A DNA stretch of 32,000 bases from an uncultured Wenzhouxiangellaceae bacterium (GTDB lineage Bacteria > Pseudomonadota > Gammaproteobacteria > Xanthomonadales > SZUA-36). Below are positions 11,101 to 17,063 of this stretch, piece after piece. Numbering within the stretch: the first letter of the stretch is position 1; each line of letters starts with the position of its first letter. Below the pieces are notes generated by a model that saw nothing but the letters and a program-made list of their open reading frames with translations, searched no databases and was not told the DNA's origin. The stretch spans positions 65,572 to 97,571 of the forward strand of contig CAYYCX010000004.1 of NCBI GenBank assembly GCA_964470455.1, in the 5' to 3' direction. The translations under genes were made by a program, and so were the position numbers.

Positions 11101-11631
11101 TTATTTTTCTGTTGTGGTTAGCGTGGACCACGATACTCGCGCATGTGTTCCATCGCCTTTTGAAAGTTTCTTTCTGCCAATAAGCCGGGCTTCGAATTCA
11201 AAGTCTTTGGATATTTTTACAACCACTAGTTTATTGAAGTTGCCGGCGCGCTTGACTTGAACTTGCTCCCCGGCTTTTTCTGGAGAGATGGTCTTTACCT
11301 CAACAAAATCATTGCCCAATCTGCCGTCCGAACCCCTTGTATGTGGCTTGTGTCGCTTGATGCCGTACTTAATTTCCGCATAGAGCTCTCCTAACTCACC
11401 CCAGATTTGCAGGTAGCGGTCTGTCAGGGCGTGGTACGAGATTGCACTCTCAACCAAGCTCTCGAAAATAAACACCAATTCAGGATCGGGCTGTGACAGT
11501 CCGGTTGATAATTCTTTCTCATCTAAGGGCTGCCACTCCCAAGGGTTATACCCACAGGCAGCGGCATCAGCTATTTGCTCTGAGCTATAGCCTTCGTTAT
11601 GCATGTCGTGCAGAAAGTCCCAATCGCTCAT
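11101..11631 (-). CDS. Hypothetical protein (possible PD-(D/E)xK-like C-terminal core, unverified)
   Basis: 176-aa ORF with no competing frame. The C-terminal part GSDGRLGNDFVEVKTISP...LVVVKI has a D...E-x-K arrangement. I recognise no family with confidence. Confidence 0.55.
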   Translation of the reverse strand: MSDWDFLHDMHNEGYSSEQIADAAACGYNPWEWQPLDEKELSTGLSQPDPELVFIFESLVESAISYHALTDRYLQIWGELGELYAEIKYGIKRHKPHTRGSDGRLGNDFVEVKTISPEKAGEQVQVKRAGNFNKLVVVKISKDFEFEARLIGRKKLSKGDGTHARVSWSTLTTTEK

Positions 11632-11681
11632 GAGTTCGCCTTATTGCCTAACGTTGTGCTGGAGCAGCGCCGGCCAGAAAA

Positions 11682-11939
11682 CTACTGCGAAGCGCTACCG
11701 CGCTTTCCCCGGCGCCCACCCGGAGCGCTGGTTATGCGTGATGCTTCCTCTGCGATACTCAACAAGCCGTGCAAAGCATCATTAACTGCCTTTGAGGTGG
11801 GAAAGGCCTTGGCTATGTCCGGCTCAAGTAAAGCAACTGATGTGCCCTTTCGTACCTCGGCGTGAAACTTCCCACGCTCAAGTTTCTTGAAATCGGATCG
11901 TTTGTACTCGCTACGTATTTCGTCTTTAGCCTTCTTCAT
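11682..11939 (-). CDS. Small hypothetical protein, antitoxin-like pattern
   Basis: I prefer the ATG at 11939 (MKKAKDEIRSEYKRSDFKKLERGKF...LLEPDIAKAFPTSKAVNDALHGLL). This (E/D)-I/M-R-x-EY...RGK...L-(D/E)PD-x-AK-x-FP-x-S-x-x-VN-x-AL pattern recurs in small TA-partner proteins. That link is from memory, not from a search. Confidence 0.5.
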   Translation of the reverse strand: MKKAKDEIRSEYKRSDFKKLERGKFHAEVRKGTSVALLEPDIAKAFPTSKAVNDALHGLLSIAEEASRITSAPGGRRGKRGSASQ

Positions 11940-11964
11940 ACAGTTCTCGTATTTGGACACTCTG

Positions 11965-12185
11965 TTACCCGCGACCATACGCCAGCACAAACTGAAATGA
12001 CCGGAGGCATGGATAGGTTTCAGGGATTACGTCCTTCATGGGGTGTTTCTTCTCGATTGCAGCAGCTATCTCTGATATGAAGTTTGGAACCGTAGTGATC
12101 TCGATGTCCTTACCCCAAGTGCTGGTTGGTTGTGACCTTGAAGTACCGATTATGGCCCGCTTCTGAATTGTGGCAGGCTTTGTGC
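11965..12185 (-). pseudogene. 3' portion of a small gene split by the IS3-family insertion
   Basis: The frame is open from the IS left end to the stop at 11965 (…STKPATIQKRAIIG...IPETYPCLRSFQFVLAYGRG). It is in frame with the 5' portion at 13505-13760 once 12186-13504 is removed. Confidence 0.6.
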
Positions 12186-12235
12186 TGAATCGCCCCGGGT
12201 TTTGAGGAGGCTCCAACCTTTGAGAGAATGGAGCC

Positions 12236-12559
12236 ATGAACACATCTACGAAGTTTTCCCCGGAAGTCCGAGAACGCGCTGTGCGTATGGTGCAGGAGCA
12301 TCGCGGTGATTACCCCTCCCTTTGGGCGACGATTGAATCGATTGCACCGAAGATCGGCTGTGTACCGCAGACCCTGCATCAATGGGTACGCAGGTATGAG
12401 ATCGACAATGGCATTCGGGACGGTGTCAGCAGCGAAGAGCGTGATCGGATCAAGGCATTGGAACGTGAGGTGAAAGAGCTGCGGCGGGCCAACGAGATTT
12501 TGAAGCTGGCCAGTGCGTTTTTCGCCCAGGCGGAGCTCGACCGCCGTCTCAAGTCCTGA
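12236..12559 (+). CDS. IS3-family transposase OrfA (HTH / leucine-zipper part)
   Basis: 107 aa. [16 protein letters not shown]...[18 protein letters not shown] and the [29 protein letters not shown] coiled-coil tail are typical of IS3 OrfA. Confidence 0.85.
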
Positions 12560-12612
12560 ACGCTTTTATCGACAGTCAACGAGATACCTACGGGGTCGAG
12601 CCCATCTGCAAG

Positions 12613-13464
12613 GTGCTGCAGATGGCACCGTCGGGGTATCGGCGCCACGCGGCACGCCAACGTAATCCGATGCTGCGTTGTGCCCGTGATCAGCGTGATG
12701 AGCTGCTGATGCCACAGATCCAGCAGGTATGGGACCGGAATATGCGGGTCTACGGTGCCGATAAAGTCTGGCGACAGATGAACCGGGAAGGCATAGCGGT
12801 TGCCCGCTGTACAGTTGAACGCTTGATGCAGCGCATGCAGTTGCAAGGTGCACGGCGCGGCAAGGTGGTTAAGACCACGCTGGCGGATAAAGGCGCCGTC
12901 TGCCCCCTGGACAAGGTCAACCGGCAGTTCAAGGCCAGTCGTCCCGATGAGCTGTGGGTGTCGGACTTTACCTATGTCTCAACCTGGCAGGGCTGGCTGT
13001 ACGTGGCTTTTGTCATCGACGTCTTTGCGCGGCGCATCGTGGGTTGGCGGGTCAGCCACTCCATGCAAACCGACTTTGTCCTCGATGCGCTGGAACAGGC
13101 GTTGTATGACCGACGGCCGGCAGGAGGCAGTTCACTGATCCATCACAGCGACCGAGGCTCGCAATACCTCTCCATCCGTTACAGCGAGCGTCTCGCCGAA
13201 GCGGGCATAGAACCCTCTGTAGGTAGTCGTGGAGACAGCTATGACAATGCCCTGGCCGAGACCATCAACGGCTTGTACAAGACCGAACTGATCCACCGCT
13301 GCGGGCCGTGGAAAACGAGGCAATCGGTAGAAATGGAAACTCTGCGCTGGGTACACTGGTTCAACCACCAGCGACTACTGGAACCGATTGGCTATATCCC
13401 TCCGGCTGAAGCTGAGGCAAACTACTGGCGGCTACTCGCTGAGAACGAAAAGCGTGCTGCTTGA
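12613..13464 (+). CDS. IS3-family transposase OrfB (DDE catalytic domain), probably expressed as an OrfAB fusion
   Basis: The DDE pattern is present: WVSDFTYV ... HHSDRGSQY ... YDNALAET. The frame is -1 relative to orfA and is open from 12445 (…[27 protein letters not shown]). The T5 run GCGTTTTTCGCC (12515-12526) is a candidate slippery site. Confidence 0.85.
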   Translation: MLQMAPSGYRRHAARQRNPMLRCARDQRDELLMPQIQQVWDRNMRVYGADKVWRQMNREGIAVARCTVERLMQRMQLQGARRGKVVKTTLADKGAVCPLDKVNRQFKASRPDELWVSDFTYVSTWQGWLYVAFVIDVFARRIVGWRVSHSMQTDFVLDALEQALYDRRPAGGSSLIHHSDRGSQYLSIRYSERLAEAGIEPSVGSRGDSYDNALAETINGLYKTELIHRCGPWKTRQSVEMETLRWVHWFNHQRLLEPIGYIPPAEAEANYWRLLAENEKRAA

Positions 13465-13504
13465 ACTTAAACCAAATGGCCTCCACGAAACCCGGGGCGA
13501 TTCA

Positions 13505-13760
13505 TCCCTGTAATAGCTGCATACTCGGCTGCAGAATAAACAAATTTCTTCCTCAAGAACTTCTCTTCTCGTTTTTCCCAGCTCAATGCATCCCATGAGG
13601 TTTCCAAATGCACCAATTTCTTGCTTGCGGGATCATATGCCAGAACGTCCAGCTCGTTATCCCAGCCGCCTTTCCCGCGCCTGTTCGCTTTGATGTTCGT
13701 GCGCACAAAATACCCTTGAATGGCGTACCACTCTGCAGCAAGGGATTCGAGAAAGTTCAT
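13505..13760 (-). pseudogene. 5' portion of a small gene split by the IS3-family insertion (first gene downstream of the pAgo gene)
   Basis: A strong RBS (AAGGAG, 5 nt, ATG at 13760) precedes it. The sequence reads MNFLESLAAEWYAIQGYFVRTNI...GGWDNELDVLAYDP...LVHLETSWD...AAEYAAITG and then runs into the IS right end. The last 12 aa of the tracked ORF are IS-encoded. Confidence 0.6.
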
Positions 13761-13872
13761 TCGTGCTCCTTGCAGTTAACGCTAATGCTCAGCCGTGCAC
13801 CGCTTCGACGCGTGCGCTGGAGTTACTTGTTGGGCAGCTTTGTTCTCCGTCACTATGTGCTCAATGACGCGC

Positions 13873-15300
13873 CTACATAAAAAATCTGTAGTTGTACACG
13901 TCATCAACAATTTCCGGTGTGCCCTTCACAACATTAGCAAATCGCTGAGAGTACACTAGCGTCGCCGGCAATGTCTTATAAAGTGTGTTGTTGTTCCAGT
14001 CACACTTGGTAAGCGAATATACACTCAGGCAGGTGTCATGCCAGCCACCCACCCCCGACCAGCGCCTGAGTAATAAGGGGTTCGGTGTAGGCTTGAAAAC
14101 GGCCTCTTTAAAGACAGGTCGATTCGCCTGTTGGGCATTTACGCCGGACACGCTACCCTGTGTCCACAGCAGGCATTCAGTTTCAGTAAGCGGCAGATAG
14201 CTACCACGATCAAGCGGATAGGCAGCCGGCCGTGCTTTCTGATGCGGGGGCTGCGGCAGATCGACTTTGAGACCGTGCCACTCCGTACTTCGGATGATCT
14301 GGATGAGTTCCACCTCGGTCTTTGAACCAAATGCGTCCAGCGCGCCCTGGATTTCTTCCTCCGTAAAACGCGTCGACTTGTGAACGAAAATTTTGCGCGG
14401 CACATGTGCGTAGTGGCCGTTTTGATAGAGCATGAGGCTGCGCGAAAGAACGGACATCATTTCCTGATAGCTCAAATACGGATTCCCTCTCCTGTCCGTC
14501 TCGAATTCCCGCGTGTCATAGGCGACAAATTCAAAACCTGTCCCGTCCGGATCGAAGATCTGGCTACAACATGTGCTGTATTCCATACCATCTCCATGCT
14601 TGCGCATCGCATAGCTAAGGCCGATATAGGCCTCGTCACGATCAAAGTCCGCAAGCTTCCACGGAATCCCGCCGGCTTTGGCATAGAGAGCGACCGTAAT
14701 GCCCCACATCGCCTGCGAACGGCAGGTACGTGAGAATACAGTTTCATTCATGATCTGCACGGGAATGCCGAGCGGCGCTATCAGTGCTTTTAGTCGGTCG
14801 TGGAGATTAAAACCTTCGTACGTAAATGCGTTTTTCCACTCCGGTGGTAGATAGATCATGAGCACATCGAAAGAGCCACGCTTCGCCCGCGTAGCGCCGA
14901 TGGCGTGAACGAGTGCGCGCACAAGCCCCTCGCCATTCTGTGCCTGTGCAAGGCGCCCACATTCATCCGGTGGCATAAACTTTAGGGCATCATTCGCCGG
15001 AACGAGCGGAACGCGAAATACGCTCTCAAAGCCCGGATACTCAAAATAGTAATTCTGTGCTTCTCTCACTTGCGCCTTGCGCTGCATTTCGGAGGCGATG
15101 TGCTCGATCCGGTTAATGCGATCAGCGGGTGCCAGATAGGCAAGCCGCACCTGCGCCGGAAAACCAAGATCACGACTGTATGGTCCATTTGCGATCAGAC
15201 CCCGAAGCGGGTGCGTGTCAGTCTTCTTGTCCGCAAACAAGAGAGCCGGTTCTGGGAGCATGCCATGTGCGGATAGTTCTTCGTGCCGCTGCGCGTTCAT
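13873..15300 (-). CDS. Short prokaryotic Argonaute (MID-PIWI only, predicted catalytically inactive)
   Basis: 475 aa, too short to carry N/PAZ domains. A MID 5'-end pocket-like H-K-Q-K pattern is present ([20 protein letters not shown]...[11 protein letters not shown]). The PIWI-like AYIGLSYA and IFVHKSTRF occupy the places where active Agos have IGxD and RDG. The ATG overlaps the stop of the SIR2-APAZ gene (ATGA). Confidence 0.85.
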
Positions 15301-17063
15301 GTGGATGCCCTCCTGCTGAACGCCGTACGGGTGGAAACAGTGAAGGAAGCTGGGTAGTCCGTATCAGCGCCGTAGGTGACGGTAACCGGTTTGCCCTGGC
15401 CAATTGGGCCTATAAGAATCTCGATCCAGGCGTTTAGGATTTCGTAGGACTGATTGTTATATCGTTTGAGTTTACGATTGCGCAGAAAGTCTTGCGCATC
15501 TTCACGATTCTTTAGCGGTTTGATCCATACATCAGGCTCCAGCAAGAGCCACAGGACACTGGCACGCTCTTCAAGCCTTAGCTTGACACACTCGGCCCAG
15601 TGCGTATCGGGAAGTTCACGGACGGCTCCGCAAATTGGTGCGGGATTGCCACGAAAGCCAACGGCTTTCTTTAATGATGCGAAGCGTTCATCGTTAGCCT
15701 GCCGGTAGTCAACAACAGCGTAGCAGGTCTTTCCCTTCTTGCGTGAGAGTACGGGTTTGTCGCGGCAAAGTGCTTCTGAAACGCCATGCTCGTAGAGCGA
15801 CTTTAGATGTGTGGATGCGGCGATCTCAGCGACAGGATCGGCAATCTCCCGCATGCCGATATCATTCGCAATCAGCCCCTCCAAGCTTTTCGCAACCTTT
15901 GTTGAATCGCCCCAGAATACGACGCCATCCTGATAGGCAATGACGGCATCCGGCTGCTTCTCGCGCACAGCGGCAAACACATCGGCAACGGGAACATTGC
16001 CGGCAGGAAGCGAGCCGCACTGCCGGGGCGCGTCGACGATTTCGAGTGCGTTCGTTCGCAGGATCGGATAGCTCTTGCCGCATGCGGGCAACGGAATGGA
16101 TACCGGATGCGCCCGTGCTGAGCGCACATTGCCATCCAGTGCCTGTGGCTTGTCAGGAATTTGCCGCCAGATCTTGTAGAGCATCAGATCGAACGTTCCG
16201 GTCTCTACAATATAGGCCGCAACGCCCTTTTCCCGCGCAGCTTCGATAAACGCCGCGACAGCAGGTGCGGCGCTGGATGCGCGCGGGACGGACCACCAGA
16301 TTCCGTGCGGGAATGGATTGGGCTGCTCTAGCGCCTTTCCCAGCATGGCCATGACGTTGCTGTCCCGGCCGCTATAACCGGCGACGATCAGGCCGTTGCG
16401 TCCCGCCGCCGCAACGAAGCACTCCTGAATCTTCTCATCGTTACTAAGCAGATCCCTGGAAAGGTTTTTGATTTTCTGGTACCGAAAGTCCCCATGAATC
16501 TTTGCGTATAAGGGAAACCGCTCTGCATTTAGTGCTTCAAGCGCGGCATATGACCCTTCAAGATGAAAAGGCGTCAGGTTCTTTCCGGCTACGGCGGCGT
16601 AGGCATCCTCAATAACATCATCGAAATTCGTGGTGAAGACAAGACGTGACCGCTCCATTGCCAGAAGCGAAGCCAACGCGCGCGGCCCGATTGTCAGCGT
16701 CACCTTGTCCGGTGACATCTGCTCCTGAATATAGGATTGCTGTGCAGCGTAGTCCTCGCCGAACATCAGTTTGAAATAGTAGGAATATTCCTCATTACTC
16801 CAGATTTCCGGGCAGCCTTTGCCGTCGAAGTAGCTCTGGATCTTCGCCTTGATGGCATGATTGCTGACGTCATGAGCCTGAACGTCCTGGTTCTCTTTCG
16901 CGCAGTAGTACCGTCGCTTTAAATCCCAGATCAGATCCACCGCAGCGGGGAGACCGGACGAACGTGACGTGCCCGCGCCGAGTAACCACATAAGCTGCTG
17001 CGCATGCTGCACGAAGTGACGCAGAAACTCCTGTTCATCGATCTGTAAATTCACGCTGCTCAA
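15297..17063 (-). CDS. SIR2-APAZ protein (SIR2-family NADase domain fused to an APAZ-sized C-terminal region), partner of the short pAgo
   Basis: 588 aa. SIR2_2-type motifs are [23 protein letters not shown] and KIHGDF, followed by a C-terminal extension of about 300 aa. It is translationally coupled to the pAgo gene. The start is TTG 17063 or GTG 17054, and no in-frame ATG is available. Confidence 0.85.

Follow-up and report, generated by a model that had tools for sequence, protein, structure and literature searches.

The locus described here raises the question of what was lost when an insertion sequence (IS) entered the first gene downstream of a short prokaryotic Argonaute (pAgo) gene: a component of the Argonaute operon, the toxin of a toxin-antitoxin pair, or a gene unrelated to both. 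The locus lies in a 32,000-nt stretch (the window; positions 65,572 to 97,571 of contig CAYYCX010000004.1, assembly GCA_964470455.1) of an uncultured Wenzhouxiangellaceae bacterium, and all coordinates are those of the window. The interrupted gene is referred to as the split gene. The locus is very probably explained by a recent and simple IS knock-out of a stand-alone gene for a nuclease-fold protein, unrelated to the pAgo and to a gene of 85 amino acids (aa) that follows. According to this explanation, the split gene would be a minus-strand gene of 157 codons from a widespread, unannotated, stand-alone family with a PD-(D/E)xK-like fold. A 1319-bp element of the IS3 family would have entered it between codons 85 and 86 and left a 3-bp target duplication, in which one base would later have become different. 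An earlier note, made from the letters of the DNA, had proposed that an IS3 insertion splits the first gene after the pAgo; the insertion and all coordinates given for it proved to be correct.

Reconstruction of the split gene

The split gene is encoded on the minus strand with its ATG at 13760, 112 nt past the pAgo stop codon (13873-13875). This start, the gap to the pAgo and the ribosome-binding site AAGGAG had all been read in the earlier note and were confirmed. The N-terminal open reading frame (ORF) as it stands continues for 12 further codons inside the IS to a stop at 13467-13469, giving 97 aa in total. When 13505 is joined to 12185 the frame stays open to the stop at 11965-11967, again as proposed. 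In the C-terminal piece, codon 86 (ACA) corresponds to 12183-12181 and overlaps the left copy of the target duplication, codons 87-157 occupy 12180-11968, and the stop follows at 11967-11965.

The best uninterrupted homologue, P0002 (156 aa), aligns its residues 1-85 with the N-terminal piece (85 aa; 81% identity, E 3e-53) and its residues 86-155 with the C-terminal piece (72 aa, read from 12183 to 11968; 74% identity, E 2e-40). The 97-aa ORF matched 230 proteins, scored over the native residues 1-85, and most of them are 156-158 aa long. The two pieces abut without gap or overlap in an alignment with 30 homologues, and the flanks joined in silico give a single continuous DNA match over the junction to eight uninterrupted loci. 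From the alignments, the two flanks are contiguous parts of one gene. The in-silico deletion of the IS and the homologue search suggested beforehand thus returned uninterrupted homologues of 156-158 aa, with the halves on consecutive residues of the same proteins.

The length of the native gene required a correction. A product of 158 aa had been reconstructed earlier; the joining was right and full-length uninterrupted homologues exist, but the length is 157, the additional Ser being derived from the duplicated target. The closest homologues hold two residues between the conserved G85 and P88, as compared with three in the window after plain removal of the IS, and for this reason the Ser codon is regarded as extra and the native gene is read as one of 157 codons, with the IS between codons 85 and 86. 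Either copy of the target duplication gives the same restored protein (ITG-TKP).

The insertion sequence and its target site

The element is inserted antisense to the split gene. Its terminal inverted repeats measure 26 nt (12186-12211 and 13479-13504), are 92% complementary and begin with TGAATCGCCCCGGG. Two ORFs are present on the plus strand, orfA (HTH_Tnp_1, 12236-12559) and orfB (rve/HTH_21, 12613-13464), the latter in the -1 frame relative to the former. Several features of the IS3 family are found: an orfA with a helix-turn-helix (HTH) domain, an orfB with a DDE/rve domain in the -1 frame, and inverted repeats ending in TG...CA. End-to-end matches of about 1319 bp with 75-77% identity are annotated as IS3 family transposase elements, have the same TGAAYCGCCCCGG termini and sit on plasmids of Polaromonas, Pseudomonas, Acidovorax and Comamonas. 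Annotated copies on plasmid 1 of Polaromonas sp. JS666 and on plasmids of Pseudomonas aeruginosa share the 1319-bp size, the TGAAYCGCCCCGG...TTCA termini, and the arrangement of orfA (HTH) and orfB (rve) in the -1 frame. The element of the window is nevertheless distinct from these copies: the plasmids searched contained no relative of more than 90% identity. It is also single-copy in its genome, and its own 3-bp duplication has one mismatch. The copy-number check that had been recommended found the element complete only once in the 195-contig draft genome, along with a 40-nt end-like fragment on another contig.

A direct target duplication of 3-4 bp is a mark of the IS3 family. On the minus strand, the triplet before the IS is GGA and the triplet after it is GCA. 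The earlier note had seen no clean target-site duplication (TGC vs TCC on the plus strand) and had kept open an IS-mediated rearrangement. The triplets do differ; the spacing in the homologues, however, shows exactly three extra bases in the window, and a related IS copy (L071) is flanked by a clean 3-bp duplication (TAG/TAG). Two observations weigh against a duplication, namely that only two of the three bases agree and that three of four related IS copies have none. We infer that one base in one of the duplication copies changed after insertion.

If the halves derived instead from different genes that were joined through an IS-mediated rearrangement, the open frame across the join would be accidental. 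The mismatch of TGC and TCC speaks for such an origin. It is opposed by the match of the halves to consecutive residues of the same homologues, by the single DNA match of the joined flanks to the eight loci, and by a spacing that is exactly that of a 3-bp duplication. In the uninterrupted homologues both halves belong to the same protein. The rearrangement is considered practically excluded, because the flanks read as contiguous parts of one gene, and the insertion appears to have been simple, with no adjacent deletion or inversion.

Condition of the interrupted gene

The two halves keep 45 of the 47 positions that are ≥90% conserved among homologues, the other two being an R-to-K and a V-to-I exchange, and no stops or frameshifts were found in either half. 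As neither half has decayed further, the disruption appears to be recent. The remaining product consists of 85 native and 12 IS-encoded residues and, according to the structure model described below, would be without strands 4-5 and the C-terminal helices. A search of the same genome for a further member of the family found only the two halves. The insertion knocks the gene out. As an event it is ordinary, the disruption by an IS of an unannotated gene with a nuclease fold inside a mosaic island of defence genes.

Relation to the SIR2-APAZ/pAgo operon

The upstream neighbours of the split gene encode a SIR2-APAZ protein (15297-17063) and the short pAgo (13873-15300), which PADLOC assigns to Aga_SIR2-PNTD (E 1.7e-188) and pAgo_I (E 3.9e-179), respectively. 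By PADLOC the operon is of the same kind as the SPARSA-type SIR2-APAZ/short pAgo system (GsSir2/Ago). Systems of that type have two genes, and the split gene was not seen with them elsewhere. The earlier note had considered the split gene as a third, accessory component of this operon that was knocked out by the IS. Several points favour this reading. The split gene shares its strand with the pAgo gene and starts only 112 nt past the stop of the latter, its ribosome-binding site is strong, and no terminator is predicted in the gap; in addition, short pAgos commonly have nuclease-fold partner proteins.

The question was approached from both sides. On the pAgo side, a metagenome scan gave 11 loci with a pAgo 71-94% identical to that of the window, nine of them with 590-6000 nt of downstream sequence. 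The split-gene family is encoded in none of these nine (tblastn, and the family profile on six-frame translations at E <= 10), and the genes after the pAgo differ in each of these loci. A weak tblastn match to the family upstream of SIR2-APAZ in L052 (E 4.8e-4) was dropped, since it had no counterpart in the profile search. At the DNA level, the resemblance to the window does not extend into the split gene; it reaches 13776-13784 in five loci and otherwise breaks off at the pAgo stop. From this comparison, the mobile SIR2-APAZ/pAgo module appears to have its 3' boundary about 18 nt ahead of the ATG of the split gene. The RNA structure predicted for the tail of the module is nothing special (z-score 0.63 over 13778-13872), and no terminator or structured element was detected between the pAgo and the split gene.

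Starting from the family, the comparison covered 35 loci in genomes, with flanks of up to 10 kb. They come from several bacterial phyla and one metagenome-assembled genome (MAG) labelled as an uncultured archaeon, and they include Gammaproteobacteria, Chloroflexota, Patescibacteria, Paenibacillus and Planctomycetota. Relatives of the pAgo or SIR2-APAZ of the window were found near family members in none of the 35 loci and in neither of the two metagenome contigs that carry the closest homologues. Among 100 related genomes the pAgo was present in one (38% identity) and the split-gene family in two others, and in six genomes of the same genus neither was found. None of the Argonaute-associated models of PADLOC matches the family. 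The recommended check on co-occurrence of uninterrupted homologues with SIR2-APAZ/pAgo loci was thus negative from both directions, and the split gene would not be part of that system; the accessory reading is quite improbable. A one-off functional link in this strain stays conceivable, given the same-strand spacing of 112 nt in which no terminator is detectable, and this counts against the independence of the two.

The 85-aa gene and the brnT remnant

The 85-aa gene begins 25 nt downstream of the split gene. Its protein has 1104 homologues with up to 91% identity, and a 90-aa BrnT gene (PF04365) is located directly upstream of the homologue in all ten loci inspected, with a 14-nt overlap in nine. 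The 85-aa protein has no Pfam match at E <= 0.1 and hence none to the BrnA family, although it holds the antitoxin position of a BrnT/BrnA type II module, behind BrnT, in all homologue loci. The window differs from such modules in that only seven codons of brnT are left and that the split gene is unrelated to BrnT. DNA similarity to the ten brnT-antitoxin loci is confined to about 11646-11949, and the remainder of brnT is absent from the window. The junction at 11949/11950 is 15 nt past the stop of the split gene. Because only a brnT stump remains in front of it, the 85-aa gene is best read as an antitoxin gene whose BrnT toxin partner was deleted or replaced, and its position next to the split gene as secondary.

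The second suggestion of the earlier note, a toxin-antitoxin pair with the split gene as toxin and the 85-aa gene as antitoxin, did not hold. The order of a larger gene followed after a short gap by a small antitoxin-like gene would suit such a pair, as would a nuclease-like fold. The partner found upstream of the 85-aa family is nevertheless BrnT in every one of the ten loci, and the stump in the window points to a juxtaposition by deletion or replacement. No relative of the 85-aa gene occurs in the 35 loci of the split-gene family, and other family members are followed by mutually unrelated ORFs. A toxin role of this kind is highly improbable. Three distant BrnT genes are present elsewhere in the genome, and in view of these the orphan antitoxin might still be relevant; a second copy of it was not found in the genome.

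Distribution and neighbourhoods of the split-gene family

A HMMER pass over 1.84 billion representatives, clustered at 50% identity, gave 562 clusters at E <= 1e-3 and 350 at E <= 1e-10. The members are almost all 150-170 aa long and single-domain. A search for domain fusions among the longer members turned up one case with a nucleotidyltransferase, probably a read-through, and no consistent pattern. Plasmids carry the family in only three cases, and it is absent from a phage collection of 50,697 records. On a plasmid of Acinetobacter the family gene adjoins TIR-domain genes.

Clustering of the neighbours of 29 loci revealed no conserved neighbour gene. A type IIG/ISP-like methyltransferase recurs in five loci and was rejected as a dedicated partner, as it turned out to be a whole type IIG enzyme encoded within a defence island. 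For 84 flanking proteins, Pfam and PADLOC gave recurrent matches to components of restriction-modification systems (type IIG and type I), group II intron reverse transcriptases and integrases. Single cases comprise a KAP NTPase, Shedu SduA, a patatin and a transposase, and plain housekeeping genes are also present. The family appears, from these neighbourhoods, to be a stand-alone gene, often in variable or defence/mobile regions; this habit fits a solitary nuclease and is no proof of one.

Several variants of the family were observed. Truncated forms of 93 aa, homologous over residues 1-72 only, occur in unrelated contexts (L093:247-528, L094:22-303, L095:1274-1555 and L096:574-855); one of them adjoins a MIP channel gene and was seen on 23 contigs. 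As several metagenome contigs hold such truncated forms, the family has decayed elsewhere too. A subfamily of about 171 aa occurs in Patescibacteria/Saccharibacteria and in uncultured gammaproteobacterial MAGs (L027:2911-8289, L023:5994-11169, L024:51-2583), directly after type IIG/ISP-like restriction-methyltransferase genes or after HsdM and a KAP NTPase. In L027 the member of this subfamily precedes a Shedu SduA gene. On a plasmid of Azospirillum oryzae (L074; NZ_CP054617.1, 492932-503390) a family member comes after a string of four genes. Their products are a very large RNaseH-domain protein (from a gene of about 9.8 kb), an AAA ATPase, a DUF6035 protein and, between these two, a hypothetical protein; the arrangement looks like an uncharacterised defence-like cluster.

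Predicted fold and putative activity

An AlphaFold2 model was calculated from the homologue alignment with P0002 as target and reached a pLDDT (predicted local distance difference test) of 92.4 and a pTM (predicted template modelling score) of 0.86. Its elements follow one another as helix, three strands, helix, helix, strand, strand, helix, helix, with a core of the type alpha-beta-beta-beta-alpha-beta (H3-14, E18-27, E33-43, E48-55, H61-72, E90-97). Foldseek against the PDB retrieved almost exclusively PD-(D/E)xK domains (best E 2.7e-4, probability near 1), including AF1548, Upx, the R2 endonuclease domain, McrC, Can2/Cdn1, DrdV, Hjc, MspJI and Bax1. Upx is a dual PD-(D/E)xK defence nuclease (PMC13099982). 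Among predicted viral structures (BFVD) the named matches are PD-(D/E)xK or other nucleases, with E down to 3.6e-6, and most of the others are unnamed. A restriction-endonuclease-like core had been guessed in the earlier note from the N-terminal part, and such a fold is now supported by the model and by both sets of structural matches.

Minimal PD-(D/E)xK nucleases (AF1548, PDB 1y88; Hjc, 2eo0; Upx; McrC; Can2 domains) have the same core layout as the split-gene family and, like it, acidic residues at the positions of E10 in helix 1, D38 in the ELDVLA strand and E53 in the LVHxE strand. Foldseek probabilities are 0.96-1.0 for most of the compared nucleases, 0.84 for McrC and 0.63 for Hjc. In the family E10, D38 and E53 are nearly invariant, as are H51 and K71/K72. 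Its own features are a distinct C-terminal half (residues 90-156) with conserved P139-E140 and L145-R146, and an invariant N-terminus MNFLE.

Several results weigh against a nuclease assignment. The TM-scores of the Foldseek matches are only 0.4-0.5, and the position of the (D/E)xK lysine is Ser/Thr throughout the aligned family. No significant sequence or profile similarity to the minimal PD-(D/E)xK nucleases was found. Scans of the pieces and of intact P0002 against Pfam, NCBIfam, PADLOC and PHROGs gave no match at E <= 0.1, and a profile search of PDB sequences returned nothing significant, only spurious matches, for example to sorting nexin and methyl-coenzyme M reductase. Membership in YraN/UPF0102 (PF02021), which was compared by sequence profile only, was rejected; hhalign showed the expected register at a level that is not significant (E 0.044, probability 1%). 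Membership of a named nuclease family is not supported.

Judged from the model, the intact gene probably encodes a metal-dependent endonuclease or a nucleic-acid-binding protein. Catalysis is uncertain because the motif lysine is Ser/Thr; E10, D38 and E53 could form a putative active site with a lysine supplied from elsewhere (K71/K72, or H51 in its place). A relocated catalytic lysine occurs in some branches of the PD-(D/E)xK proteins. Nuclease activity is accordingly proposed only tentatively, as a possibility that falls a little short of an even case. The family may alternatively have kept the fold as a DNA- or RNA-binding regulator or adaptor whose catalytic lysine was lost. The Ser/Thr in all aligned members, the lack of a matching nuclease family model and the heterogeneous neighbourhoods, housekeeping genes included, agree with that possibility. 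It is contradicted by the near invariance of E10, D38, E53, H51 and K71/K72, typical of a site with a moved lysine, and by structural neighbours that are all active nucleases, and is regarded as somewhat unlikely.

Features of the locus and the surrounding island

The features of the locus are summarized in Table 1. The region forms a defence island, a mosaic whose modules were acquired independently of one another. Their order is type I restriction-modification, a small membrane-protein gene, SIR2-APAZ/pAgo, the split gene, the brnT remnant with the antitoxin, a DUF6998-like gene, an Xre/RES toxin-antitoxin pair and a Fic gene. The gene after the antitoxin (11101-11631, 176 aa) has a weak, below-cut-off match to DUF6998 (E 1.5e-4) and a D...EVK-like motif (GSDG...DFVEVKT), and may encode another PD-(D/E)xK-type protein. 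Similarity to the brnT-antitoxin loci stops at about 11646, some 15 nt ahead of its start. Integron cassette boundaries were considered for the module junctions and dropped, as an informal look found no convincing GTTRRRY core at the junctions read and no integrase ORF in 9-20 kb.

Table 1. Positions of the features at the interrupted locus, in window coordinates
Feature	Coordinates	Strand	Basis
Split gene, N-terminal piece (codons 1-85)	13506..13760	-	81% identity to P0002 residues 1-85; ORF list
Ribosome-binding site AAGGAG	13766..13771	-	5 nt 5' of ATG 13760; read from sequence
Split gene, C-terminal piece and stop	11965..12182	-	74% identity to P0002 residues 86-155; abuts N-terminal piece in alignment
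IS3-family insertion sequence, 1319 bp, antisense to split gene	12186..13504	+	Inverted repeats, transposase domains, relatives
Target-site duplication, right copy (TCC on + strand)	13505..13507	.	Homologue codon spacing; L071 comparison
Target-site duplication, left copy (TGC on + strand)	12183..12185	.	Homologue codon spacing; L071 comparison
Tail of SIR2-APAZ/pAgo module, ~95 nt after pAgo stop	13778..13872	-	DNA conserved in L048, L050, L053, L056, L057
Intact 85-aa antitoxin gene, BrnT-associated type	11682..11939	-	Homologues paired with BrnT
brnT remnant, last 7 codons (RELYEEG, 11929-11949) and stop	11926..11949	-	tblastn, 7/7 residues identical to BrnT C-terminus

Implications for annotation and for the family

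For annotation, the ORFs 13467-13760 and 11965-12243 represent one IS-disrupted pseudogene, the 85-aa gene is an orphan BrnT-associated antitoxin, and SIR2-APAZ/pAgo stays a two-gene module here; no new question on Argonaute biology is opened. The split-gene family is moderately large, spans several bacterial phyla and one MAG labelled as archaeon, and is without a curated model yet has a confident nuclease fold. It could be given its own Pfam entry and would lend itself to an inexpensive functional test. The family might represent an undescribed single-gene defence or selfish nuclease with a variant PD-(D/E)xK site, composed of E-D-E and a relocated lysine, moving between defence islands; this is unlikely. 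If true, the IS knock-out in this genome would reflect a cost of the gene to its host.

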